A DNA stretch of 64,000 bases, taken from Chrysomallon squamiferum. Taxonomy: Eukaryota; Animalia; Mollusca. The DNA is taken from positions 16,492,001-16,556,000 of the forward strand of contig CM022666.1 in the NCBI GenBank assembly GCA_012295275.1, written 5' to 3'. Positions within the stretch are counted from its first letter, which is position 1, and each line of letters starts with the position of its first letter. The notes beneath the pieces were generated by a model, which ran no database searches, was not told the origin of the DNA, and was given only the letters and a program-made list of their open reading frames with translations. A program made the position numbers and the translations under genes. Positions 2,777-55,700 of this stretch are shown here, piece after piece.

Positions 2777-3187
2777 CTATGTGAGAAGAGTCATTGCTGT
2801 CATTGTGAACAGTATGAAGAAAACAAAAAACAGGATGCGATCGAGGATGCAAGCAAACTCTGCCCACTGTTCATTGACACTGTCGTATGACACGTCAGCT
2901 GACATTTTACCCACAATGTACTGAAGACATTTGTTAGTTTCTGACAGCTGCTGTTCCAGTCTGTTCTCAGTCTGTTCCGGGTGGAGACTTGTCTGTTCTG
3001 TGTCTTCCAGTCCTCGCAGGCTCGTTAGAAACAGACTGTCCACCGGAGAGTAGCGGTCAACACACAGCAGACGACGAAGTCCGTTACGTCCAAGAAACAT
3101 CTGTAACATTAAACTTTATTACTATTGTTGTATTATTATTATTATTATTATTATTTACATAAATTATTTTTTAAATTATTATTAATA

Positions 3188-3225
<38 letters not shown>

Positions 3226-3657
3226 TATTATTATTTACATATATTTTTATTATCATCATCATCATCATTAATATTGCTAAACTGTGACTTGTTTTAACTG
3301 CTACTATTACAAACTCAACTATAACCAAAACAACACTATCAGAACTATTACTACTACTTCTACTATCACTACCATGATAATTACTGTAAACAGCCAATCT
3401 AAGAGATCTCATATTAATAAACATCAAATTTAAGACACCATCAAGTGACGTCCATGCATTCCTTAGCATACAAGTTTACATCTGTTGAACATTTTGTATT
3501 TCTGTAATTGTTCAGTGCCTGTATTAACTTTCTTAAATCAATAATAATAATAATAATAAGTAAAACATATTATAATAGGAATAAAATTAGAATGTTATCA
3601 TCTTAAAACATCTGCAATTTAAAACATTTTCCATTCATATTATTATTATTGTTACTA

Positions 3658-3697
<40 letters not shown>

Positions 3698-5547
3698 TAT
3701 TATTATTATTATTATAATAACTGAAGTCTGAAGTGATCTTACACTTTGAATCCATGCTGGTAGGGGTCTGTGTCTTGAACCCCGGACACTGAGATTGCTA
3801 ACCAGAGCTGAGAGTATAATACTAAAACTTGTCAGAATCAGAGTTGACAGATAGAAAACCCCTGTAAAATAAACAAATTTAAAAATGAAATAGAAGGTAA
3901 AACATAAAATACAGGTAACCTTTATTTCATTAAACCAAAAAAAAATAATAGAAAAATAAATAAATAAATACTTCAGTGAATGGGAAAGTCTCCATTTTTT
4001 CTATTTCATATTTCCCAAACATTTTTTTATTTTTTAATTTTTGTTTTTATTACTTTTTTAAAACATATCTGCATTGCAAATGGATCGACATGTCTGAAAA
4101 TAAAATATTTTTGTTTCTCTGGATATGTGTTATGTAAGTCATTATTAAAACAAGAACATAATAACAAAAGAAACAAAAGGAATACAGTTACTGAAGGAAA
4201 CCTTATGGTTTATGTTTCTGTTTTGATCTTAACATACTAGACATAAATACACAGATAAGAATTATTTACCTGTATACTCTTTATTAAGTTTGTGTTTAGA
4301 AAGTAGCTTTCATCTTACCTATTCGTGGGACTGATCCATGACTGAATGGAATTGCCTCTTGTAAGACAACAATAAGCACAATAATACACAGCATGATAAA
4401 CAAACCTGAAAATAAAAAAATAAAAAAATTAATAAAAATAAAATAAAATAAAATAAAATAAAGTAAAATAATTATATGTTTTGATTGATTTTTTTACATT
4501 ATCTAAATATTTAAACTATTTAAATGTATCCAAATCTAAAATGTATCACAGAATGAAAACTTGTGTACCAAATGTATGTTGTATTACTGGCATTTCAACT
4601 TTTTAAATGCAGGGTCATTTTAATTTCATGTGGTGATAATTTTGAAAATTATAAATCTCATACACACCAAAAAAGCTACTATACAGTGAATGTTAAACTG
4701 ATCACCAAAGGTGGACCAGATATTAAAATCACGAATAGTTTCAAAAAAAAAAATATAAACATATACTTTAGCTTTATTAAATAATTTTTCAAATTTACAT
4801 TTATATTTATTAATTATATTCTTGTGATGACAATACAATCTGAAAAATTAGTTTAACAGTCATTCAGCACAGAGTTTATTTATAACAGAATTATCATATT
4901 CTCAGTGGTCCCACGTGTCACAAACATGAAAGTAGAACATAGTAAAAATCATACACTTTTTTAATTTAAGAAGAAATAATTTTCAAACTTACCATATTTA
5001 GTTTTATCATGGGACTGGGATGGAAGCAGAAAGAGGACTGGGACCAGAAGACCAAGCAGGGCTGAAGGACCAACGACGAGGTATCGATAAAATGATGCTC
5101 GTCTCTTTAACCTGCACAGTATACTCAGAGTAGTGATTCCATCGTTGCAGCAGTCATAATGTATCTGATTCAACGTTGCTGTTGCCTGGCCACCGATGAG
5201 CTCCCACTGAGAATGTTCTGCAAGGTAGCGCGACCTCTCCTCCATGGGAACATCAATGTGCCTTGACATTCTCACCTTTTATAAAGGTGATGTCCATCTC
5301 TGCTGATGAGTGTGACCATGATCCAAGGTCGATGTTACATCTCTGGATGTCATAGGGAAATTTTAACATGTTCATGGCACAGTTCACTGACACAGTCATC
5401 AGAGGAATCCAGAAAATTGTCCCATCATGCCTCACTGACACAACATCCGCATTCTGGTAAATAGTAGATTTCAACGCTGCACTGTTTAAATATATGATTA
5501 ATAAAAACTGTAATTATACAGATGTATGCTAAGTTACATCATTTAAA

Positions 5548-8262: not shown

Positions 8263-11200
8263 ATGTCTGACCCAGTACCGGACAGAACTCCAGAGATAAA
8301 ATACAAAAAGGTAAATGCATGCTGTTGTCTATAATTAAAATTTATATCAGTGGTGCTTTTCACATCTCAGACATCTGCCGCGTAAAGCCACACGTCAGTT
8401 ATCAATGTCAAGGTCGAAGTTTATTACTAAATAATATTTATAAAAGATAAAAGAATAAGTTAATTATTGTTGTAATCTCATTTGAACAATTACTTTTCTC
8501 AGTAATTGAGAACAATAATAAACAGTTTTTGATATGGATATTAAAACTGAAGAAAACTGTTGTCACTTTATTTTCTTTGGTTTTCGACAATAATAATCGC
8601 CAAAAGCAAACCGAAACCGGCTGAGTTATTATAATTATTATCTTCATTGTGAATGTTGGTATTTGCAGGCGGGAGGGCTGAGGGAGAAAATAAAGAAAGA
8701 AAGAAAGAAAAAAAAAATATGCCGCATAATTTTGGTTTTGCTTCAAGCTCAGGAATTAAATAAAAACAAATAATTAAAAAATCGTTCTGTATAAATTATA
8801 GATACGATTTTACAGATACAGATAATTTTGTTACGTTTTAAGAATCAGTGAAAAAAGAGAAAGAAAAGGTAATTTTGTTACGTTTTAAGAATCAGTGAAA
8901 AAAAAAAAAAGAAATGCAGCATAATTTACGTTTTTGCTTGTAGCTCAGGAATTAAATAAAAATAAATAATAAGAAAATCATTGTGTATTATTATAGTTAC
9001 GATGTTACAGATATAGGTTAAGGTAATTTTGTTACGTTTTAAGAAAAATTGTGTATTATTATAGTTCAGTGTAAAAAAAAAAAAAAGATGCAGCATAATT
9101 TACGTTTTTGCTTGTAGCTCAGGAATTAAATAAAAATAAATAATAAGAAAATCATTGTGTATTATTATAAATACAATACAGGTCAAGGTAATTTTAATGT
9201 TTTAAGAATCACTGCATTTTGCAGCTTCAGTGGTGAAATGAAAGAAATTGTCCAAATAAATTTTGCTTACTTAATTTTTTATTTTTATATTTTAAATATT
9301 TCAAGTTTATTTACTACTACTATTGTTATTATTATTGGTTATGGTGGTTGTCGTAGTAGTAGTGCAAATCTGATTATAATAATCAATCAAATGCATGAAA
9401 CATATTTATTTTCTAATTATTAATTTAATTTTTTCCACTGTTTTTGACAAGATTTTTATCAACAATGATTGGCATGACTCAGTCAGTGGTAGAGTTTTTC
9501 CAGTTATCAACCCATGTACTGGCGAGAAGATCTGTGATGTACAAGAAGGCGACAAGGTGAATGAGAGAATGAATAAATGAATGAATTTTATGAATGAATA
9601 AACGAATGAATGAATTTTGTGAATGAATTCGTGAATGAATAAAAATGAAAGAATAAAATGATTACTACAACATGATTAAATGAGTGAAGTGAAAGATTGA
9701 ATAAGTAAATAACTATATGAATGAAATAAATATTGAAATGAATGAATATTTATGTAATCTGGATACTTTAAAACTTAAATTTATGTGAGTCAGTCTCAGG
9801 TAAGTATATAATTGCAGTGATCATTATCAGGTAGATAAATGTAATTTACTGTTTAAAGTGTAAATTTTCCAGGTTGATGTGGACAAAGCTGTTGCTGCAG
9901 CACGAAATGCGTTCAAGACAAACGCCCCCTGGAGGACAATGGATGCATCCAAAAGAGGGAAACTCATAAACAAATTTGCTGATCTTCTTAATCGAGATAT
10001 TTCTTACATTGCTGTTAGAAACTTTATTTACGTATTCTTTATTTATTTTGTTAGTTAGTTAGTAAGTTAGTTATTTAATACAGTTTTAATGTTTCTGCAT
10101 ATCTCTTAAGCTACCCTATATTTATCACTGATTTTTTAAGTTACTCTAGCAGTTACTAAAACAATCTATATATTTTGATAATAAATGTATATAACACAGA
10201 TCTGGTTCTAAAAATATTTTTAATGTTCCAAATCCTAACTCTAATAATTGAAAAAGAGATGAAATTTACCATTCACATAAAATTATTTGACATAACTTGT
10301 TTAATCATCATTATTACTTAAGCATTATAATATTACAGAATTTGGAAACTTTAGACAATGGAAAACCCTTCTTCGATGCAGTTGATGATGTTCGTGCTAC
10401 AGTTGATGTCTTCAGATATTTTGCTGGTTGGTGTGACAAGATAACAGGAAAAACTATCCCCGTCGGTAAGTTACAAAGCTTGATTATAATAGATATAGGT
10501 ATGTATTTATGTCTGTCTGTCTGTCTAACACACACACACATGTATATCTATTTTTGATTTTTAATTTTATATTTATTTATTTAACAGATGGAGACTACAT
10601 GACTTTCACTAGACATGAACCTGTAGGAGTGTGTGCCCAGATCATTCCTGTAAGTAAGAATTTAAAAAAAAAAAATTGTTTTATTATTATTTCTTAATAA
10701 CCTCACCTTAGGAAGAAAGAAGGAAGGAGTGAAGGAAAGCAATGATTTATTTAATTGTTGAACTTATTTATAATTTTACAGCAATGGTCTATTGTATTTT
10801 TAATTTAGTTAAGTGGAACATAAAAGAATGAGTAAGTTCCCAACACTGTTTGATGATCCTACTGATGATAATCATCAGAGGTTCTTTTATTTGCTGCTTC
10901 CTACTGACAACAGAGCACATAGCATAACCTTCAAATACAGAGTATTGGCAAGAACAGGGAAATAGCTAAGAGGTCACTGAGTTAAACTACAGGTCATCAT
11001 GACCAACACAATAATGCTGAGAAAATATTTTAGTTGAAATGTTGAAATGTTGAAATTAACAGTGAACAAATAGAGATAAATATAGTTTATATTAATATAT
11101 ATTCATTCTTTTATATTCAATTTTTTATTATTTTATTTTGTATGGGTTGTATTTTTTTCTTTTGTTTTCTTTTTTTTTTTTAATTTTTCAGTATGTATTT

Positions 11201-12046
11201 GATTTCAGTGTTTGTGAGAGTAATCCTAACTATATTTAAACAAATCATTCCAGAGACAGGACAGTACACACCAAAACCTTTTTAACTGGCTGGAATGAGA
11301 AGTGCTCCAATAATGTTTTTTTCTTGCCGAGCTGAAATTTCAAACTAAATATTGAAAAATATATCTGTAAATATATTGTATATTTCAGTGGAACTATCCG
11401 GTTGCTATGTTGTCATGGAAATGGGCACCTGCTCTAGCGTGTGGTTGTACGGTTGTGTTAAAACCTGCAGAGCAGACTCCTCTGTCAGCTCTCTACTGCG
11501 GTTCTCTCATTAAAGAGGTAGCTTTTAATGATAATAATAATTATGGTTCATGCTGTTTCAAATTTCCGTTTTTAGGAATAAAAGAGTTGGAATTAACTTG
11601 GGTGTATAGAATTTTAAGACTTGGAAATTTAGATTTGGCACCTCCAATTTGTCACAGCATTTATTTATATTTGTATAGAGAATTTCTTGGGCTCTTAATG
11701 TTGGAGATTTCTATGGAACTGATAGCGTGTGAAGGTTATTATTCTATATGTGTCTGCGTTTGTTTGTCAACAGGCTGGATTTCCACCGGGAGTTGTCAAC
11801 ATTGTCCCTGGTTACGGACCTACAGCCGGAGCTGCCCTCAGTGAACACATGGATGTTGACAAGGTCGCATTCACTGGATCAACAGAGGTAACAGCATCGT
11901 CACTGTCAGTCTGTCCTAATTCATCAACACTGGCATTATTATTACTATTATTATGATTATTATTATTATTATTATTATTATGATCATTATTATTATGATT
12001 ATTATGATTATTATTATTATTATTATTATTATTATTGTAATCATCA

Positions 12047-12086
<40 letters not shown>

Positions 12087-15000
12087 CATTATTATTATTA
12101 TTATTATTGTAATCATCATTACTGTTAACATTATCATCATTATTATTGCTTAATTTCCAACATCATAATTGTATTAATTATTACGTTTTTTGATATTAGT
12201 AACTCCGTAGTGAAAGATTTTGTGTTCAATTTTAATAAAAATGTGAAGTTTTTGGAATAAATGTAACAAAGTTTTAATTAAATTCAGGTTGGCAAGTTGA
12301 TAATGCAGGCGGCTGGTAGAAGTAATTTGAAGAGAGTCAGTCTTGAACTTGGAGGGAAAAGTCCCCTTGTTATTTTCTCTGACTGTGACTGTGAGTAAAG
12401 ACATTTGACTCATGTTTTATTTGTGATTGTTTCTACTGGGTTGAAACTTCTGACATGTATTTCCATATTTGTACACAGATTCATTCAAACAATACATGCT
12501 GTTTTGTTCACATTTCAACTTTTGTTTAGATACAGTATTGTTTTTACTTGTTGCATTTCCCAACCCAGCTTTTTAACAGATTTATCTGATTTTCTGCTGT
12601 CTATGGGAAGGTGTACATGAAAGAAATCTTACTGCTAATCTGGCTGCTTTGCAGTGGATGCTGCTGTCACTTGGGCTCACGGAGCCATCATGAACAACCA
12701 AGGACAGAACTGCTGTGCCGGATCAAGAACCTTCGTTCAGGAGAGCATTTATGACCAGTTTGTGGAGAAAGCTCGCCTGATGAGTGAGATGAGGAGAGTA
12801 GGAGATCCATATGATGCACTCATCCAACAGGGCCCTCAGGTAGAGTGAAATTGTGTTTTTAGTGTGGTGTGTGTGGGTGCAGGTGTAGTATTTGTATTTT
12901 TTGAAGGAGAAAATTCTGGAGACTTTTAAGTAAAAAAAACATTTGTTTATTGTTATTGGTTGGGATGATCCAGTTGAACTTAAAGATACATTTACTTATA
13001 ATTTCAAAAAGTTTTTTTTTTTTTTTTTTTTTTTTGTAAGAGTAGATATTAAAAATAAAATAAAATGAAATATATCTTGATTGCTTTTTAAACCTTGTAT
13101 TTAAATATCACATGAGCATTTTTCATTACAGTAATAATAACAAAATCATTTTAAATTTTTATTTTTCTGAAAATTGTTTACAACTTGTGTTTTCAGATTG
13201 ATGATGCACAGTTTAAGAAGATTCTTGATCTGATTGACAGTGGCAAAAAGGAAGGAGCGAAGCTGGAGTGTGGGGAGAGCGTGCGGGGGACAAGGGGTAT
13301 TTCATTAAACCCACCGTGTTCTCTAATGTCTCTGATAAAATGAGGATTGCCAAAGAGGAGGTAAACAAAGACATTTTTGTTTATGTAAGGATGGAAGAAA
13401 CGACAGACAGAGGGAGGGAGGGAGGATTGAATGGACAGATGAACTATGGATGTAAATGGATGGAGTGACAGTTGAGTGGATGGATAGAAGGATGAATTGA
13501 CTGATTGATGGGATGAGTCAGAGAGAAATTTTAATTTATATTTGATTAGATTGAAGAGCTGGGTTGAGAGGGGTTAGATTGGGCTTCATATGACCACAGG
13601 TTCTGTTCTTCTCAGTGTAACATTTAAAACTGTTTGCTGCTGTTACCAGTGCTCTATAATTTATTTATCTTGTTATAGTGTTTTCCTGTCAGATATTTAC
13701 ACTGACTTTTAAATACATTTTTATTTACCTTAGAATGACACCCCGTAGCCAGTTATATTTTTGCTATGGTGATGTTAAAACAAACAATTTAATTCAATTC
13801 AATATAATTCCTGTCAGTGAGAATGTGTGTATGAAAAATGTGTTGCTGTTAATCAAGAGAGTAGCTGATGAAGTAGCTGCAGCAGGTTTTTCTGACAACG
13901 TTGTGTACAGTCATACATGAGGTCATGCATTCATAAATTATAAATGTGCATCAGTTAAAATGTTTCTTTCAAAAGTTTTTCTTTATGAATATAAATACTC
14001 TTAGATCTTATAAATTTGAAGAAAAAAAGAAAAAGAACAAAATTAGAAATTTGTAATTTCTTCTTCAGATATTTGGACCAGTTCAGAGTATTATCAAGTT
14101 CAAGGACATGGACGATGTGGTAGAGAGAGCTAACAACACCCACTATGGCCTGGCTGCAGGAATCATCACCAATGACATCAACAAAGCGATGACATTTGCA
14201 CAGAAGGTGCAGGCTGGCAGTGTCTGGTTAGTTTCAAATTATACACAGAACTGTTACAACAGAAATACTAGAAACAAAAAAAATTACACAGAACTTTACT
14301 GAAGAAATACTAGAAACAAAAAAAATTATACACAGAAGGGTTAATTTCACTGAAACAAAAAATTATATTCTGAGTTTTTAACCTAATATATTTACATATG
14401 GAAGGGTTAACAGGTTACTCTCACAAATTATATTCTGATTTTTAACCTAATATATTGTGTGTATGGTGTGTGTGTGTGTTGTGTCTGTGTCTGTGTCTGT
14501 GTCTGTGTCTGTGTCTGTGTCTGTGTGTGTGAAAATGTGAGTATATTAATATTATAAAATGTTATAAATATAGTTTCATCAATTAACAGATAATATTTAT
14601 ATGAAAACTTAAACAAAGCAGTTGTGAGGTATTATTTGTTATTGAGGATATTATCTGTTTAATTTTCAGGATTAACTGTTACGATATTATCACTCCTCAA
14701 ACAGCATTTGGAGGCTTCAAACAGTCAGGCCATGGAAGGGAATTGTAAGTTTTTCAATCAGCTTGTTTACAGTAGATCTACTTTTCATGCTGCAGTCTAA
14801 TTAAACATTCTTTCATTCAGTCTTGTCTGTAACATAATTACCTTTTTTTCTTAAGTAATGATGAATCATCAATATGCAGTAATATCTCAAATAAAAAATA
14901 AATTTCTGGGTTTTTTTTTTTTTTCTTTTTCCTGTTGATATAGATCAGAAATGTTGTGTGAGCTCAGTAAAATAAGAATAAATTTATTAAACCAAAAAAA

Positions 15001-17651: not shown

Positions 17652-41852
<24,201 letters not shown>

Positions 41853-43581: not shown

Positions 43582-44133
43582 AAATAACAAAACTACTTTT
43601 TCTCTATTCACATATTTATTACCATTTATCCAGACACTGGTACTGAGCTGTACAAACTGGAGAAATATTTAAAATCTGTTTACAGCAAGAACATATAAAA
43701 TGATTCTAAAACAGGTAAGTGAACACAAATGTTTGCTGTATTTTTATTTCTAAAAATGAAGTGACGTAGATATCTTTCAGTATTGCACAAATAAATCATG
43801 TATTCAGAATTGATGTTTCTAAGATAATTCTTAAAATATTCAAACAATTACTGTGTTGGTCTTGAATCTTATTACAGGGGGATGTCAGACTACAATTGAA
43901 AATAAAAAATTTTCATGTTACAATGTGTACTTGAAAAACATAAAAATATGTCAAGTATGAAGTTAAATTTAAATAATTTTTTTACATATTTATTAGCATA
44001 TTTTTCTAAGTAACAATGAAAAAATAAAATTTATATATATTTCATTATTATTATTTACATAAAATAATCTGACAATTAAAGTTGTTTTTCATGCTGATGC
44101 TGATGTTGATGTTGATGTTGAAGTGTGTAGTCG

Positions 44134-46126
44134 TCATCTCAGAAAGATGTCGGTGTTGCGGAAACTTGAATTATCTCTGAAACAAAATTTTTTTTTTTTA
44201 AATTTCACATGAGACAGAGGAGAAAGTTCTAAAGCTAAATAATATAACTTAACTTTTCAAAGACTTGATAGTTTATAACAGAAATATTGTCTTTGTAACA
44301 CAAAATAATATATTTGTAAAGAAGATTGATTTGAGCTGATTAAAAAAACTAAACAAGCCCTGGTTAATTAAAAACAAATCAAACGTATCTGAAAAGAAAG
44401 TTAACAAACAGAACAATAATTTTTACATTTATTTTAGTAATATAAAACTGAATTACTGTATTTGTCAGAAAACAGATAATTGTAAGATAAAGGTGGATTA
44501 ATATAAACTAGGATCATTTCAGGCTTGTGTAGACTGAAAACAAGTTATTTCTGTTCTGTTTCCAGAAACAAAGTAACTAACCAGACATAAAACATGTTTT
44601 AATATTTACAACTTAACAAAAATGGTGGCAGTTTTCAGAGATGGAAATGACTAAAAATATCAAACTACAAACATGGGCTCATTTAAAACACAATTAATTA
44701 TGTACATTGTCTATTGTAAAAGCAACTAAAAACAACACAAGATTACAAGTAAATAAAAACTAAATAAAAAGAAAGTTTCTCACTTGAGGCTGTCTGTGTG
44801 TGCTTTGTACTCCATTATTGTGTTTGGGGGAAGATTAAGAACACGTTTCAACGTGTCTCGAATCCGTGACGTTGTCACCTGATCACTGGCAGTGTGGTTC
44901 CATAGAGATATTATATCTTCCTAATAATACAATACAAATATATTAAATATAACACAAATATATTATATCTTCCTATAACATAACACAAATATATTATATC
45001 CTACTTAAATATAACACAAATATATTAAATCTTCCTAAAATATATCACAAATATATTATATCTTAAATATAACACAAATATATTATATCTTCCTAAAATA
45101 TAACACAAATATATTATATCTTCCTAAAATATAACACAAATATATTATGTCTTAAATATAACACAAATATATTATATCTTCCTAAAATATAACACAAATA
45201 TATTATATCTTCCTAAAATATAACACAAATATATTATATCTTCCTAAAATATATCACAAATATATTATATCTTAAATATAACACAAATATATTATATCTT
45301 CCTAAAATATAACACAAATATATTATATCTTCCTAAAATATGACACAAATATATTATATCTTCCTATAATAGAACACAAATATATTATATCTTCCTAAAA
45401 TATAACACAAGTATAAGTCTTTCTGGAAACAATACAGATCTATATTTTACTAGAATATAACAGAAATATATAACCTAGTACATCTTCATAGAATATATCT
45501 CAGAGACACATATCACAAGAACACAACACTCTGATAAAACACTGGTAAGTAATATTAAACACTGGTAAGTGATATTAAACACTGGTAAGTAATATTAAAC
45601 ACTGGTAAGTGATATTAAACACTGGTAAATGACATTAAACACTGGTAACTAATAATATACACTGGTATGTAATATTAAACACTGGTAAATGATATTAAAC
45701 ACTGGTAAATGATATTAAATGCTGATAAATGATATTAAACACTGGTAACTAACATTAAACACTGCTAAGTGATATTAAACACAGGTAAATGATATTAAAC
45801 ACTGGTAAATGATATTAAACACTAGTAACTAATAATATACACTGGTATGTATATTAAACACTGGTAAATGATATTAAACACTGGTAACTTATATTAAACA
45901 CTGATAAATGATATTAAACTGGTACCTGATATCGTATTGATACAACTGCGCCACAGATCTCCTCTCCTACCATGAACTGCTCACCTAACATGGCAAGAAT
46001 GAGATTTTCCCAGCACCGAGATGATAAACCTTTCTTCAGTCTGATAATCCATTTGCCTCCTGACTTGTTAGCACTGTCCTGTACAACACAATTATCTGTG
46101 TAGTAGAGACAGACAGACAGACAGAC

Positions 46127-46223
<97 letters not shown>

Positions 46224-46301
46224 ATATATATATATGTTTATGTGTTCATGATTTGTGTGTGTGTGTCTCTTTCTAAGTTTGAATCTGGGTCTGTTCCTCT
46301 G

Positions 46302-46332
<31 letters not shown>

Positions 46333-47891
46333 AAAAACACACATATACATACTTAGATAACAAAAATGCTTTCCAATTTAAAAGCATTTTTATATAGATG
46401 TAAGTATCTCTAAACTGTTTTTCCATCTATATGCCTGTCTGTGTGCATGCATGTTTTTGTTTGTGTGTATTAATCAGTCTTACTTCCCACATTGGTCTAA
46501 TTCCTTCTTTAAATAGATGATAGTCTGTGTGTCCAGAGAGATTTCCCGGCCGCACCAGGTGACTGTAGTACTGCCAGAACTGCTCCACCTATAACATCAT
46601 CACAGTAATAGTAATAAACATCTACATCATCATCACAGTAATAGTAATAAACATCTACATTAATAAAGTATTAATCTAAACAACATCATCACAGTAATAG
46701 TAATAAACATCTACATCATCATCACAGTAATAGTAATAAACATCTACATCATCATCACAGTATTAATAATAAATATCTACATCATCATCACAGTAATAGT
46801 AATAAATATCTACAACATCATCACAGTAATAGTAATAAATATCTACAACATCGTCACAGTATTAATATTAAACATCTACAACATCAACACAATGTTAATA
46901 ATAAACATCTACAACAGAACATTTTTAGTAATAAAAAAAACAACTGCAACATCAACACAATATTAAAAATTGACTTACTAATGAGAATAACAATACAAAC
47001 ATTTAAGATGTTTCTGCAGACAATTTTACTGAGTGAAACTAGCTCAACTTACTGATGCAAATGATCCGATAAACTTGAGATTCTGATCGTAACTTGTCAT
47101 CTGTTTGCCTGGAGTGCGGCGAGAAAACCAGTATGCGTAGTTGAAGTTGAGAGGATGTTCACCTGCTCCAGGTTTCTGTAAAAATAAAAATACAAGTTAG
47201 TATTCTCACATACTGGATCTACGGAAAAAGATTATAAATAGTTTATAGTGCTGGTTCATAAGAAAACATTCAGTAAAACTTGGAATATATATTAATATAC
47301 ATACCTGTCTGTACACTGTAAAAATAACTTAATCAGTAAGGTAAAATACAAGTTTATACAATAATACACCAGATCACTTTAACAAAAATAAATATTTAGT
47401 AATGAAGAATACTTTGAAGAATTTTAAACATGCGCACGAAAAATATATATATATTTATATTTTAATATTCATATTTTTATTAATTATTTAAAATATTTTA
47501 CCGGTGCTGGTCTGGGTGCCATATCACTGCTATTTGTATTATCTTCCTCGCCGCTATCTTCGGGTTTTAATCTATATAAATAGAATGTTTGAAAAGATGT
47601 TACTATGAAACTAAACAGCAACATACTGGGTACAACCTAGCAGAATTTGTTTTTAATCATTTCTAAAATAATCCTTTAAAAACGTGATTATTTCTGTGAT
47701 TAATTTAAAAAACGAAAAAGTAATACACACGGAAACACAAACGCAATTGCTGTAACTAATAGAATGTATTAAATATATGAAATAAGTATTCTATTTTAAC
47801 ATAACTGTAGTTACTTTGAACCAATTACAAATCTATATACTATTTTATAATAGACAAATAATATTACATACACATCAAATTTGTTATTCAT
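44134..47891 (-). CDS. EIF4E2: Eukaryotic translation initiation factor 4E type 2 (4EHP, class II eIF4E), 7 coding exons
   Basis: Exons: 47872-47891 (MNNKFD), 47502-47571, 47053-47175 (EHPLNFNYAYWFSRR..SYDQNLK, with the class II Tyr-for-Trp substitutions), 46484-46588 (VEQFW..LFKEGIRPMWE), 45926-46078 (GGKWIIRLKKGLSSRCWENLILAMLGEQFMVGEEICGAVVS), 44784-44920 (EDIISLWN..RIRDTLKRVLNLPPNTIMEYKAHTDSLK), 44134-44176 (DNSSFRNTDIFLR*). All introns GT-AG with consistent phases. The ORF track misses this gene because the exons are short. Confidence 0.96.
44909..45411 (-). repeat. ~31-bp tandem repeat copying the acceptor and first codons of EIF4E2 exon 6
   Basis: Minus-strand unit tatttgtgttatattttag|gaagatataata; about a dozen copies keep AG|GAAG. 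Confidence 0.92.
45535..45922. repeat. 20-bp tandem repeat (ACTGGTAA(G/A)T(G/A)ATATTAAAC), ~19 copies, abutting the EIF4E2 exon 5 donor
   Basis: Read directly from the sequence. Confidence 0.93.
46592..46915. repeat. ~33-bp tandem repeat (CATCATCACAGTAATAGTAATAAACATCTA) abutting the EIF4E2 exon 4 acceptor
   Basis: Read directly from the sequence. Confidence 0.9.
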
Positions 47892-48465
47892 TTCGTGAAT
47901 TTATATCTCTCGCTACAACGTTTGTATGTTATATTCTCCACCTATATCCGGAGATCCACCAACAATATGTCAGGACTCTGCTTGTCGTAATATCAGACGA
48001 AAATTTGCTCTTTTCTAAAATAGCCACTGAATACAGAAAACCAGACTATAATAGCTTCTAAACTTTCTGAGGCTTGGGACAATCGCATCAATATTTAAAA
48101 CTTCGAAAATCAACATATGCATGAAAGCAGAATACTGAATAGTTTGCTTAATTTAAAGGCAGTTTCTATTTTAACACTGATGTGTAATAGCACGTATTAA
48201 AAAATCATCTAAAAACTTACGGATTTCGGAATGAAAGGACATACATAGTTTTTGTATACTGTTTATATGCATAACCTGGGGAATATTTGTATACAGTTCT
48301 TCAAGCGAGGTAAGTTTCCGAATTATACCGATGATTGCCGTAATTTACCGAGGAGTTGTCACATACTATTCGTATCGGAACACAGTAAACGTCACGTGAC
48401 TATACCTGACTGTACAGGAGGTTGGTCAATGCAAACTACTGTGTTAAATATTGAACTTTCTGCTG

Positions 48466-48485
48466 GAGCTGGCTCTAGTCTAGTG
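48466..48485 (+). pseudogene. 5' fragment of a vault-RNA-like gene, truncated by a hAT insertion
   Basis: GAGCTGGCTCTAGTCTAGTG preceded by the same ~160-bp upstream region as the intact copies (tttccgaattataccgatga..tcacgtgactatacctgactgtacagg..gtgttaaatattga) and followed directly by CAGTGGTTCTCAACC. Confidence 0.8.
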
Positions 48486-48900
48486 CAGTGGTTCTCAACC
48501 TTTTTTTTTCTTTTTTTTTTTTTTTTTGGTCAATGGCACACTTTAGAACACATGAAACAATAGCGGCACACCTGGCTAAATATATACGAAAAATATTTGA
48601 ATTTTGTAAAGTCATAGACCCAGCCTAGTCATAGACACCTAGAATGACTCAAACTAAATAAAGAAAAACACAGCTATACTTCACTGCAGTGTTTCGAATT
48701 TCATCAGTCAAATAGCTGGCTTCTTTAGTGAGAAATTTGTGCCTGGCTTTTATTCATAATTTCCTCAATGTTTGGTCGAATATGAGACAGACACACCCTC
48801 ATTTCTGCTTTCGTTGTAGTAATCTCTCAGCTTCATGTTTTTGATGTTGCCTAATTCACATATATAAGGAGTTGAAAATTGTAATAAAATTTGTTGAGGA
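48486..48900 (-). mobile_element. hAT (Charlie/Buster-type) DNA transposon remnant: terminal inverted repeat plus degraded transposase C-terminus
   Basis: TIR-like CAGTGGTTCTCAACC at 48486-48500 with subterminal GGCACAC repeats. Minus strand 48725-~48895 reads ILLQFSTPYICELG..(frameshift)..EMRVCLSHIRPNIEEIMNKSQAQISH*, matching the Buster/ZBED5-like C-terminus (LLPFSTTYLCE.GFS..LR..LS.I.P.I......QAQ.SH*). The target GTCTAGTG resembles the NTCTAGAN preference. Confidence 0.88.
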
Positions 48901-49784: not shown

Positions 49785-49939
49785 AAGTTTCCGAATTACG
49801 CCGATGATTGACGTAATTTACCGAGTTGTGTCATTCAGAAACAGCGTTCATATCGGAAAATTGTAAACACCACGTGACTATACCTGACTGTACAGGTTGG
49901 TCAATACAAACTACTGTGTTAAATATTGAGTTCATACTT
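49785..49939 (+). promoter_or_regulatory. Conserved upstream Pol III promoter region of the vault-like genes (also at ~48312-48465, 51546-51678, 53171-53303)
   Basis: CACGTGAC at about -70, TATA-like GTTAAATAT at about -22, and a TTCCGA..TCGGAA inverted pair further upstream, present in all four copies. Confidence 0.6.
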
Positions 49940-50047
49940 GAGCTGGCTCTAGTCAAGTGGTTACTTCGTTTATACAAAAGATTCAACTGTCACTTGAGTC
50001 TAGTGGGTTCAAACCCACAGAGCCACTGACGCTGTCCAGTTCTTTTT
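49940..50047 (+). ncRNA. VTRNA: Vault RNA (vtRNA), copy 1
   Basis: GAGCTGGCTCTAGTCAAGTGGTTACTTCG..GGTTCAAACCC..CCACTGACGCTGTCCAGTTC-TTTTT. A box 49950-49960, B box 50006-50016, T5 terminator. Terminal stem GAGCTGG/CCAGTTC and inner stem GTCA-A-GTGG/CCAC-TGAC. Both ends resemble human vtRNA1-1 as recalled (GGCUGGCUUUAGCUCAGCGGUUACUUCG..CCGCGGGCGCUCUCCAGUCCUUUU). Confidence 0.87.
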
Positions 50048-50083
50048 AAATTATTTTTATTTTTATTTTTATTTTTATTTTTA

Positions 50084-50115
<32 letters not shown>

Positions 50116-50589
50116 TTTATTTTTATTTTTATTTTTATTTTTATTTTTATTTTTATTATTTTGTTTTGTTTGTTGAGAGGTTTCACGATGACTAGACTGG
50201 GTGGTATTAATACCTAAAATTTGGTTCGTCCCGTCTAAAGGGTAGCAGACTATAATAGCGTCACGTGACAAGGTGTTAATTATCTGAGACAGCTTAAACT
50301 ACTAAATAACTATTCTGTATCCACTAGAGAACAATAACTAAACAAGAATTCTATTTGGATAATTGTTTTATTATATATATAGATTTTATATAAATTAACC
50401 CTTAAGGGTAGCATGTAGTTAAATCGTATGATTCGACGATACACTGTAAAAGCAAATAGCTTTGATCAATAATACAAAAATAATTCAGCCCATATGTTTA
50501 CTTGATCTTTCTAAATAATCTTTTAATTATTGACATACGTTATCTTAGTTTTTAAGCGTAATAACACAATACAAATTCAACAGTAACAG

Positions 50590-50760
50590 ATTTAGCTATC
50601 TTCAATCATTCACTATGTATTTTAGGTTTAGATATCTTCAATCATTCACTATGTATTTTAGGTTTAGGTGTCTTCAATCATTCACTATGTATTTTAGGTT
50701 TAGCTTTCTTCAATCATTCACTATGTATTTTAGGTTTAGGTGTCTTCAGTCATTCACTGT
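50590..50760. repeat. 36-bp minisatellite (TCTTCAATCATTCACTATGTATTTTAGGTTTAG), ~5 copies; second array at ~52242-52412
   Basis: Read directly; present in both large repeat units. Confidence 0.9.
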
Positions 50761-51678
50761 GTATGTTACATATACAACACATTAAAACATATTTACCATT
50801 GTCTGTGTTTCCCTTTGTCTTGTGCAGGAGGCCTCAGACAACGTCTCTCAAGAAGGGCACCGATCAAAGAGATCTCGTTCAAAACGCGTGCTGCTACTGA
50901 TGTACATACCAATCGCACGGGTGTTCAATATACAGCTCTGCGAAAGCCTTTCTGAATTTACTTTGCAGCTTTTCATGCCAATTTTGAGTTTGTTAATCCC
51001 AGTGTTTCTTAGTTTATAAAATAACGGAACTTCCCCTAATTACATAATACAGCTTCTAAATAACCCATGTACGTCTGCATACGCTCTGCTGTTTAGTTTT
51101 TGTGTATTTTCAACCCATTCTCTGACATCAATTAGTTAAACATTTAAAAACTGTTAAAATATAAACTACAAGCATGATTATACAAGACAGCTAAATAAAT
51201 ATTACCGTAAAATAATAATATACTTAAGACAAAATGTAGCAGACATTCTGCTTTAAATGGGCATATAAAAATAAGTGTTTTGTGAATATTAGAAATTCAC
51301 TACATAGAAAACAAAATTACAATTAAAACCAAGTCTGGCAAAGAGGCACTAATGAGATTCCGTCACAAGAGGTTTGTGTTTTGTTTCAAGCAGGTGTATG
51401 TGTATTTAAATGTGCGTGTGTAATTGTTTGGGTATATAAGCTGATTATAAAAAAGTAAATGGATTTCGTGTTTACTGTTTGGTACAGTCAAGATATCTCA
51501 TCATAATCCTGTGTGTGTGCGTGCGTGTGTATTACCAGTGAGAGATTTCCGAATTATACCGATGAGTTCTTAATGACTATTAACGTTCGTATCGGAATAT
51601 TGTAAACATCACGTGACTATACCTGACTGTACAGGTTGATCAGTACAAACTACTGTGTTAAATATCGAGTTCATACTT

Positions 51679-51785
51679 GAGCTGGCTCTAGTCAAGTGGT
51701 TACTTCGTTTATACAAAACATTCAACTGTCACTTGAGTCTAGTGGGTTCAAACCCACAGAGCCACTGACGCTGTCCAGTTCTTTT
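51679..51785 (+). ncRNA. VTRNA: Vault RNA (vtRNA), copy 2
   Basis: Identical to copy 1 except for one base in the central loop (AAAACATTC vs AAAAGATTC); T4 terminator. Confidence 0.86.
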
Positions 51786-53303
51786 ATTATTATTATTATT
51801 ATTATTATTTTGTTTTTTTTTGTTGAGAGGTTTCACGGTGACTAGACTGGGTGGTATTACTACCTAAAATTTGGTTCGTCCCGTCTAAAGGGTAGCAGAC
51901 TATAATAGCGTCACGTGACAAGGTGTTAATTATCTGAGACAGCTTAAACTACTAAATAACTATTCTGTATCCACTAGAGAACAATAACTAATCAAGAATT
52001 CAATACGGATAATTGTTTTATTATATATAGAGATTTTATATAAATTAACCCTCAAGGGTAACACATAGTTAAATCGTATGATTCGACGATACACTGTAAA
52101 AGCAAATAGCTTTGATCAATAATACAAAAATAATTCAGTTGATTATGGTTACTTGATCTTTCTAAATAATGTTTTAATTATTGACATACGTTATCTTAAT
52201 TTTTAAGCCTAATAACACAATAAAAATTCAACAGTAACAGATTTAGCTATCTTCAGTCATTCACTATGTATTTTAGGTTTAGGTGTCTTCAATCATTCAC
52301 TATGTATTTTAGGTTTAGGTGTCTTCAATCATTCACTATGTATTTTAGGTTTAGCTTTCTTCAATCATTCACTATGTATTTTAGGTTTAGGTGTCTTCAA
52401 TCATTCACTGTGTATGTTACATATACAACACATTAAAACATATTTACCATTGTCTGCGTTTTCCTTTGTCTTGTGCAGGCGGTCCTCAGACAACGTCTCT
52501 CAAGATGGGCACCGATCAAAGAGATCTCGTTCAAAACGCGTGCTGCTACTGATGTACACGGGTGTTCAATATACAGCTCTTCAGACAGCCTTTCTGAATT
52601 TGCTTTGCAGCTTTTAATGCCAATTTTGAGTTTGTTAATCCCAGTTTTTCTTAGTTTATAAAATAACGGAACTTCCCCTAATTACATAATACAGCTTCTA
52701 AATAACCCATGTACGTCTGCATACGCTCTGCTATTTAGTTTTTATGTATTTTCCCCCATTCTCTGACATCAGTTAGTTAAACATTTAAGAACTGTAAAAA
52801 TATAAATTATAAGGATGATTATGCAAGACCGTAAAGTAATAAAATACTTAAGATAAAATGTTAGCAGACATTCTGCTTTAAATGGGCATATAAAAATAAG
52901 TGTTTTGTGAATATTAGAAATTCACTACATAGAAAACAAAATTACAATTAAAACCAAGTCTGGCAAAGAGGCACTAATAAGGTTCCGTCACAAGAGGTTT
53001 GTGTTTTGTTTCAAGCAGGTGTATGTGTATTTAAATGTGCGTGTGTAATTGTTTGGGTATATAAGCTGATTATAAAAAAGTAAATGGATTTCGTGTTTAC
53101 TGTTTGGTACAGTCAAGATATCTCATCATAATCCTGTGTGTGTGCGTGCGTGTGTATTACCAGTGAGAGATTTCCGAATTATACCGATGAGTTCTCAATC
53201 ACTATTAACGTTCGTATCGGAACATTGTACAGATCACGTGACTATACCGGGCTGTACAGATTGGTCAGTACAAACTACTGTGTTAAATATCGAGTTCATA
53301 CTT

Positions 53304-53411
53304 GAGCTGGCTCTAGTCAAGTGGTTACTTCGTTTATACAAAACATTCAACTGTCACTTGAGTCTAGTGGGTTCAAACCCACAGAGCCACTGACGCTGTC
53401 CAGTTCTTTTT
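53304..53411 (+). ncRNA. VTRNA: Vault RNA (vtRNA), copy 3
   Basis: Transcribed region identical to copy 2; T5 terminator. Confidence 0.87.
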
Positions 53412-53430: not shown

Positions 53431-53586
<156 letters not shown>

Positions 53587-53824: not shown

Positions 53825-54126
53825 AAGACAAAAAAGAATAAAGGAAAAATGAATAAATGACACGCTTCATTTCATCACACGTACAAACGGTAGCCTGACA
53901 CTGAACTTTTAGTCGAGTGCATTTGATCTTCTGTCCTTGAAAGAAGCCAGGAAACTTCTTTACTTATTAATTCATAACCTTTCCAGACAGCGACTCGACT
54001 AATACTCAGATATGTGATGACGTATCCAGGATTTCCGCTGAAGCTCCTGTTGAAATCACTTTACGTCAACTTTTAAAATTAGAAAAGAGGGAATGGGCCC
54101 GGATCGAAGGATTATATAAATTACAG

Positions 54127-54677
54127 ATGGCTCGGATGAAAAATCAAAAGACAAATAATCCTCAAGGTGAAAAGAAGCAAAAGGGACCGAAAACTTCAGT
54201 TTATTATTTTTACGAGAACAAATCAGTAAATTTAAGTCAGTTTGCACAAAATATGTCTATTGTTTTACCAGCCAGTTTAAAGATGAGTATGGAAATGTTG
54301 ACAGACAGCTACAGCGACGTCAGTGACGTGATGACGACGACTGAAACAGGGTGGATAGATGTGGGTGTGAGTTGTGAAAAAGACTACACTGTTGAAAAAT
54401 TCCACAGAAATGCTGACCTGCTTCTGAACAAAACTCAGATGAAATAAAATTTGCCTGGACAGAGCGACACACGGACAAACGAGTTGAACGACAGCGAGGA
54501 ATATCAGACTGTCTGAATGTGTCGGTGACTGCTGTTTTAAACTACCAGTGTCTTACAGACTCACACAATGCTCCCAGAAGAATACCATTTCGTGATTTAG
54601 AAAAGATAAATGTAAAGATATTTTCACGGAGACTACGTCGACTGGAATTAGCAAGTGTTGAGAACTTTTTAGTTTAA
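54127..54677 (+). other. Orphan coding-like segment: 106-aa ORF overlapped by a second 86-codon open frame (possible frameshifted ~180-aa exon/gene)
   Basis: ORF 54127-54447 and stop-free frame 54417-54677 (..KFAWTERHTDKRVERQRG..RRIPFRDLEKINVKIFSRRLRRLELASVENFLV*). Non-repetitive and GC-richer than the flanks; ATG preceded by TTACAG. No family recognised. Confidence 0.35.
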
Positions 54678-55588: not shown

Positions 55589-55652
55589 TCGTTTTTATAA
55601 AACATTCAAAGATCACTTGAGCTTATAGGCTCAAATACACAGAACCATTGTC

Positions 55653-55653
<1 letters not shown>
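55589..55653 (+). pseudogene. Degenerate vault-RNA-like relic
   Basis: TCGTTTTTATAAAACATTCAAAGATCACTTGAGCTTATAGGCTCAAATACACAGAACCATTGTCC aligns by eye with the centre and 3' part of the intact copies. It is followed, as they are, by (TTA)n and then GTCACGTGA. Confidence 0.65.

Positions 55654-55700
<47 letters not shown>

Follow-up and report, generated by a model that had tools for sequence, protein, structure and literature searches.

The window examined here, a 64,000-nucleotide stretch of contig CM022666.1 (assembly GCA_012295275.1, positions 16,492,001 to 16,556,000), appears to carry three vault RNA (vtRNA) genes, likely of a peltospirid snail. Each has a predicted RNA polymerase III (Pol III) transcript of about 105 nt, in which panhandle ends typical of the family would enclose a predicted tRNA-like middle. 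We assign this reading a probability of roughly 0.6. With similarly moderate confidence, we take the tRNA-like centre to be real and kept by selection; the identity of the three units as vault RNA genes is, by sequence and structure, close to certain.

Three vault RNA genes in tandem

An Rfam scan of the window returned only three matches above gathering, all to the Vault family (RF00006; gathering score 34 bits) and all spanning model positions 1-99 of 99 with E about 1e-11. They score 62.1 bits at 49940-50046 and 62.2 bits each at 51679-51785 and 53304-53410, which places them 28 bits over gathering across the full length. The genes are:

49940..50047, forward strand: vault RNA gene copy 1, with A box 49950-49960, B box 50006-50016 and T5 terminator 50043-50047
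51679..51785, forward strand: vault RNA gene copy 2, with A box 51689-51699, B box 51745-51755 and T4 terminator 51782-51785
53304..53411, forward strand: vault RNA gene copy 3, with B box 53370-53380 and T5 terminator 53407-53411

All three units contain an internal A box, a B box and an oligo-T terminator of four or five T, and the unit measures 107 nt with four T included, inside the range of 80-150 nt given for vault RNAs (PMC8824774). There is no difference between copies 2 and 3, from which copy 1 departs by one base, at 49980. None of 200 shuffles was predicted to be as stable as the RNA (z-scores -4.6 and -4.0). In the predicted ensemble, the panhandle forms with pair probabilities of 0.99-1.0 in its terminal part and 0.79-1.0 in its inner part, and across 12 aligned homologs 6 of its 13 predicted pairs are altered on both sides. 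The first-pass annotation of this DNA had described three near-identical units of about 105 nt with these boxes and T4-5 terminators, and had called them true vtRNA genes; the Rfam search, the fold and the panhandle covariation agree with it, and the Rfam alignment and the pair probabilities reproduce the inner-stem pairs and bulged A that it drew. Its count of 22 of 27 positions shared with the 5' end of human vtRNA1-1 holds against the string that it quoted and becomes 21 of 28 when counted by hand against the Rfam consensus.

The units thus resemble RF00006 in length, A and B boxes, the conserved block after the A box, the panhandle with its bulged A, the T-run terminator and the clustering of copies. 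They differ from it in the centre, which is mostly unpaired in the Rfam model and is here predicted to form three tRNA-like arms. Similarly, the human VTRNA1 cluster and the rat vRNA share with the window a tandem cluster and internal boxes combined with conserved upstream elements, whereas the copies here are near-identical and recent rather than diverged paralogues, and their neighbours are an eIF4E-family and a dynein intermediate chain gene rather than ZMAT2 and protocadherin genes.

The copies also have their upstream sequence in common:

49845..49939, forward strand: upstream region common to copies, repeated at 51584-51678 and 53209-53303, with CACGTGAC at -69 and TTAAATA at -21 (alignment, motif offsets)

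These motifs stand at fixed offsets in four copies. Because such an arrangement fits the composite promoter of vertebrate vault genes, which joins internal boxes to conserved upstream elements (PMC7058938), the region is likely an external promoter. In the proposed mechanism, TFIIIC would be recruited by the A and B boxes inside the gene with the aid of the shared upstream motifs, all of these sequences being present, and the T run would end transcription. The panhandle would then bind TEP1, and part of the RNA would be loaded into vault particles while the larger share would remain free, as it does in mammals, if the gene behaves as its family does (PMC9179338, PMC7916137, PMC7058938). The MVP protein has been reported in the gill of a mussel, a different mollusc (PMC5302490).

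A predicted tRNA-like centre

The centre was delimited with the Rfam tRNA model on copy 3, pair probabilities, shuffles and a position map:

51698..51764, forward strand: tRNA-like centre of copy 2, equivalent to 53323-53389 in copy 3 and to 49959-50025 in copy 1, where the D stem is weakened
51721..51737, forward strand: anticodon-like arm, with a 5-bp stem and the 7-nt loop CTGTCAC, whose GTC triplet (GUC) lies at 51728-51730

Specifically, the inner stem of the vault RNA would act as an acceptor-like stem on which a 4-bp D-like arm, the anticodon-like arm, a 4-nt variable stretch and a 5-bp T-like arm with box B follow one another; relative to the vault model, the RNA has a 7-nt insertion after box B. 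Positions 1-71 of the Rfam tRNA model align to the centre of copy 3 with 28.8 bits, the gathering score being 29. In copy 2, the predicted pair probabilities are 0.69-0.76 for the D arm, 0.71-0.86 for the anticodon arm and 1.0 for the T arm. When the 34-nt variable part was put through 20,000 dinucleotide shuffles, the D and anticodon arms arose together in 1 of them. Taken alone, an anticodon arm such as that in the window, with a 5-bp stem, a 7-nt loop bearing Y32, U33 and R37 and 4-5 nt before the T stem, appeared in 17 of 20,000 shuffles, and in 6 of 3000 when a 4-bp stem was accepted.

The closest tRNA comparison is with tRNA-Asp(GUC) (RF00005), with which the centre shares the arm order, the 5-bp stem, the 7-nt loop with GUC, C at 38 and equivalents of U8, A14, U33, A37 and G53-U54-U55-C56; we take all seven letters of the anticodon loop to equal those of tRNA-Asp. 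In contrast to tRNA-Asp, the acceptor-like stem has 6 pairs with a bulge and runs into the panhandle, the D loop of 5 nt lacks GG, and the T loop is 6 nt long. Because of these three departures, the centre is likely not charged. An anticodon loop with GUC and C38 would be a candidate for queuine insertion and for DNMT2 (PMC5699548).

The centre in other genomes

No locus in metagenome or viral contigs matched a strict 24-letter pattern; a relaxed pattern matched 18 metagenome loci, 4 prokaryote-genome loci and none in viral contigs. Twenty of these 22 loci were scanned with Rfam; L019, equal to L009 over 639 nt, and L020, read by eye, were left out. Twelve of the scanned loci, all on metagenome contigs, exceed the Vault gathering score with 36.7-69.2 bits, while the scan gave no Vault match for 6 of the 18 metagenome loci and for the 2 scanned prokaryote loci. 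The twelve homologs form six lineages (L001/L010/L011/L012/L015, L004/L016, L005/L006, L007, L008 and L014), among which L007 is a marginal match at 36.7 bits with panhandle and T run present.

MAFFT misaligns the centre, and the arms were therefore compared by position. Fifteen units were put to a fixed test of the anticodon-like arm, which asks for 4 loop-side pairs, a 7-nt loop Y-U-N-N-N-R-N and a distance of 4-5 nt to the T stem; they were the two window types, the 12 Vault matches and a second L007 unit cut by the contig end. Seven of them passed (L010, L011 and L012, the two L007 units and the two window types), with 0-12 of 3000 shuffles passing. Outside the window, two of the six lineages thus carry the arm, and a third, L014, holds a whole tRNA. 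The loop CTGTCAC recurs in L010, L011 and L012 on a stem that shares 0 of 8 letters with that of the window; between the window and L011, the most telling single comparison, the loop agrees in 7 of 7 letters and all four stem pairs are kept. Among the Fasciola vtRNAs, all five rows (four distinct centres) of Table S9 of PMC8824774, read by eye, have a 7-nt loop on a stem of 4-5 pairs, 11-12 nt after the conserved block and with A at loop position 6.

Several homologs have features of their own. L007 carries two tandem vault-like units, at 391-539 and 645-712, with canonical anticodon-like arms, the triplets GAA and CTT and compensated T stems, and in its first unit the T arm is followed by two extra hairpins. 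At L014:78-208, a Vault frame of 43.2 bits encloses a whole tRNA with a CAT triplet, which ARAGORN at default calls tRNA-Met; its tRNA score of 45.5 bits lies above gathering in a different register, and the stem is present at the tested position with a loop that starts with G. L014 is possibly a snapshot of tRNA capture, or else a tRNA precursor. L017/L018:282-416 gives a weak YrlA match (30 bits vs 69), with a vault-type block after an A-box-like stretch and no Vault match. Upstream of L001, L010-L012 and L015, a TATA-like element near -30 and TGACG near -50 resemble CRE-like vertebrate vault promoter elements.

Repeat unit, broken copies and host

The tandem repeat unit, at 1739 and 1625 bp, is larger than the gene alone, and a 1.2 kb mobile element makes up most of it:

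50181..51367, no strand assigned: dispersed high-copy element in the spacer, with loose contig ends piled at 50183 and 51367, the 5-bp direct repeat AGAGG at its flanks and a 36-bp internal tandem array
51831..52992, no strand assigned: the element again, at the equivalent site in the unit that follows, 93% identical over 1191 columns, with identical flanks

Over the element, the summed contig depth reaches about 21,000, compared with 67-101 in the adjoining spacer (one run). Because of this depth and the loose ends at its borders, the element is a dispersed repeat, and since it occupies the same site in both units, it was inserted before the duplication. Its ends come close to TG...CA, and the repeat AGAGG forms a 5-bp target-site duplication; judged by these ends, it may be like a solo long terminal repeat. 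The vault gene itself has a contig depth about 7-10 times that of its adjacent flank, a figure that does not give a copy number. This depth is far below that of the neighbouring repeat, and the gene is very unlikely to be a high-copy short interspersed element (SINE).

Within the window, three broken vault copies accompany the three intact ones:

48333..48485, forward strand: broken copy 0, in which the upstream region leads into the gene's initial 20 nt (48466-48485) before unrelated sequence takes over (blastn and alignment)
53537..53586, forward strand: vault RNA fragment from the conserved block to the anticodon-like arm, without 5' and 3' ends (blastn, 90% over 50 nt)
55589..55660, forward strand: vault RNA gene reduced to its 3' two-thirds and degenerate (75% in blastn across 96 columns, trailing ATT run included)

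The sequence that takes over from broken copy 0 within 48466-48501 presumably starts like a hAT-type inverted repeat, and no matching reverse end was found in the window. Broken copy 0 and the fragment at 53537-53586 have a common variant, TCTAGTG, at the end of the A box, like halves of one split gene. The shared insertion site shows the order of events, in which the mobile element inserted behind one gene and tandem duplication followed; three other copies decayed. The first-pass annotation, which held the centre to be merely variable, had overlooked its predicted tRNA-like anatomy as well as the mobile element in the repeat unit and the broken copies.

The copies in the window differ at 0-1 of 107 sites in the gene, at 6-10 in the 95 nt upstream, at 47 of about 1160 in the element and at 2 in the 216-nt spacer behind it. 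Contigs of 3 runs from 2 studies have C at 49980 throughout and the gene otherwise unchanged, and their upstream flank varies. Together, these sequences suggest purifying selection on the vault gene.

Two neighbouring genes follow, the first of which places the host:

17652..41849, forward strand: cytoplasmic dynein intermediate chain gene, used for host placement (tblastn, per-species identity)
44100..47575, reverse strand: eIF4E-family gene, head to head with the vault cluster (exon translations; Pfam IF4E E=1e-16 for one exon)

The 14 dynein exons encode 589 residues, 551 of which (93.5%) are identical to Gigantopelta, a peltospirid gastropod. The same exons have 477 of 589 residues identical to Haliotis asinina and 409-471 to 12 other mollusc proteins, that is, 80-81% for two Haliotis, 77% for two Patella and 69-74% for nine other mollusc proteins. 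These figures come from 14 proteins, one per species, out of 120 matches listed, every named one of which is a mollusc; the exon limits were taken from the Gigantopelta alignment, which introduces a small bias, and the direct comparison covered molluscs. For one dynein exon, Gigantopelta aegis was the one named match of three. On these sequences the host is a gastropod and not a deuterostome, in line with the molluscan host of the first-pass annotation, and its family is likely Peltospiridae. The neighbour labelled EIF4E2 in that annotation can be confirmed as a member of the eIF4E family, EIF4E2 itself being that annotation's own label.

The window further contains exons of a ligand-gated ion channel subunit and of an aldehyde dehydrogenase (2777-5513, reverse strand, and 10291-14302, forward strand), both ordinary genes; a search with the channel exon gave a single match and no taxon. 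At 37892-38400, a dynein intermediate chain exon end and splice donor recur several times in tandem within the intron that follows. Directly behind the cluster, at 53971-54447 on the forward strand, a 158-codon stop-free frame has no Pfam match and is possibly a remnant of a mobile element.

Weighing the explanations

Several observations weigh against a selected tRNA-like centre. The tRNA score lies just below gathering and is owed in part to box B, copy 1 is predicted to fold without a D arm (probability at most 0.01), its G at 49980 disrupting one pair of the D-like stem, and ARAGORN at default finds 0 tRNA genes in the window. From the MAFFT alignment, RNAalifold predicts the centre to be unpaired. 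The arm test was designed only once the window had been seen, and 8 of the 15 units fail it (L001, L015, L004, L016, L005, L006, L008 and L014), leaving three of the six lineages without the arm. L001 and L015, which belong to the L011 lineage, have lost two loop bases, and the loop is therefore not indispensable; in the L011 group, the D-like stem is, by eye, poorly paired in the canonical register. In Fasciola, U is absent from loop position 2 and the T arm is degenerate, and the count there has no shuffle control. Moreover, the conservation of the gene is not unique, given that the spacer behind the element hardly differs between copies.

Two results that would have favoured a tRNA-like centre were discarded. 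A relaxed ARAGORN call of tRNA-Asp was rejected, with 657 of 1000 shuffles called too, and a five-arm covariation count (24 of 25 cells paired, or 96%; 0 of 500 shuffles) is circular, the arms having been picked since they pair. A mitochondrial tRNA origin of the centre is likewise unsupported, 58 of 1000 shuffles being called in mitochondrial mode.

In a rival model, these are ordinary vault RNA genes with no constraint on the centre, and the resemblance to tRNA is produced by the box B hairpin together with hairpins that arise by chance in a short, AT-rich spacer. The absence of the arm from half of the other lineages, its partial loss at two loci of a fourth, the sub-threshold tRNA score and the readiness of relaxed ARAGORN to call shuffles all fit this model, as does a review that calls the central domain of vault RNAs highly variable (PMC9179338). 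We nevertheless consider it unlikely. Chance hairpins do not readily account for an identical 7-nt loop on an exchanged, still-paired stem in a second lineage, nor for a canonical arm with differing triplets in both L007 units and a whole tRNA in L014; furthermore, two of the six lineages outside the window pass, against an expectation for each of about 0.4% at most. The binomial probability of about 2e-4 is rough, the lineages are not independent, and the test was set with the window already seen.

A different possibility is that the vault frame is a precursor, from which RNase P and RNase Z would excise a tRNA-Asp-like RNA that acts alone as a modified small RNA or decoy, comparable to the YrlA RNA of M. 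smegmatis. The tRNA model does align end to end within the vault frame, and the L014 tRNA scores above gathering. RNase P cleaves M. smegmatis YrlA (PMC4201824), and ELAC1 cuts the 3' ends of human vtRNA (PMC13692180). We regard this as improbable, in that the YrlA cleavage is tied to a 7-bp acceptor stem (PMC4201824) and the centre offers 6 pairs and a bulge, along with its D loop without GG and its short T loop; ELAC1, for its part, cuts human vtRNA at the terminal tail and not inside, and in that preprint only the terminal stem was likened to an acceptor stem (PMC13692180).

Finally, a tRNA-derived SINE or tRNA-Asp pseudogene that scores on the Vault model by chance would explain a tRNA-like core with a GUC triplet, the broken copies close by and the mobile element beside each gene, but it is very improbable in view of a Vault score of 62 bits against a tRNA score of 28.8 on the same bases, both vault end motifs with a clean T terminator, at least 95 nt of upstream sequence common to the copies, which would be unexpected of retroposed copies, their tandem arrangement, the low depth beside a true high-copy element and the homologs with the same frame in other genomes.

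Proposed origin and function of the centre

Under the preferred reading of a selected tRNA-like centre, the D-, anticodon- and T-like arms would form on the inner stem, as the predicted fold and the comparative support suggest. Since the anticodon arm has no promoter role, its retention would speak for descent from a tRNA and for selection on the shape of the RNA. On this reading, the centre would be the remnant of a tRNA that gave rise to vault RNA, kept because tRNA-modifying enzymes and readers of tRNA shape would act on it and thereby stabilise the RNA or dock it. A more tentative extension, to which we give somewhat less than even odds, treats vault RNA in general as a domesticated tRNA. 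Here the tRNA body would be conserved outside vertebrates, in snails and further eukaryotes, and an Asp-type loop would have persisted in lineages distant from one another. Vault RNA would then mimic tRNA while bound to a TROVE protein, as YrlA does in bacteria, and anticodon-loop enzymes would act on it (queuine at G34, DNMT2 at C38).

The YrlA comparison (RF02553) is one of how the RNAs might work only: both are small RNAs with a TROVE-family partner and a tRNA-like domain on a protein-binding stem. YrlA, by its model, places the T arm before the D arm, in contrast to the tRNA order with an anticodon-like arm found here, and RF02553 had no match at gathering in the window and none at E up to 5 in 40000-64000. 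The bacterial YrlA RNAs, which partner the TROVE protein Ro60, are tRNA mimics and receive modifications from tRNA enzymes (Chen 2014, PMC4201824). Human vtRNA1-1 is methylated by NSUN2, as tRNAs are (preprint 10.64898/2026.03.16.712100).

The first-pass annotation had presented a molluscan cluster as extending the family to lophotrochozoans; this was already in print. Vault RNA homologs were described in two lophotrochozoan lineages (Copeland 2009, PMC2770079), and Fontenla 2022 (PMC8824774) took the vtRNAs of Lottia gigantea and Helobdella robusta from Rfam RF00006, listed Macrostomum and added five expressed Fasciola vtRNAs. Kinship of vault RNA and tRNA is usually argued only from shared promoter boxes (PMC7916137, PMC7058938). 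In literature searches covering titles and the beginnings of abstracts, a cloverleaf centre in invertebrate vtRNAs was not found; prior notice is likeliest in Stadler 2009, Kolev 2019 or Mosig 2009. Vault RNA in molluscs is thus known, and the tRNA-like centre is a structural variant for which these searches found no description and which may be in print.

A mollusc vault RNA alone would be routine annotation. The origin and the job of vault RNA have long been open, and a tRNA-like centre bears on both. Such vault genes can be miscalled by tRNA finders, as ARAGORN at default did for 2 of the 12 homologs, and a model that includes the centre may do better at detecting vault RNAs that have been missed. 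If the centre does fold like a tRNA, vault RNA would probably have originated from one.

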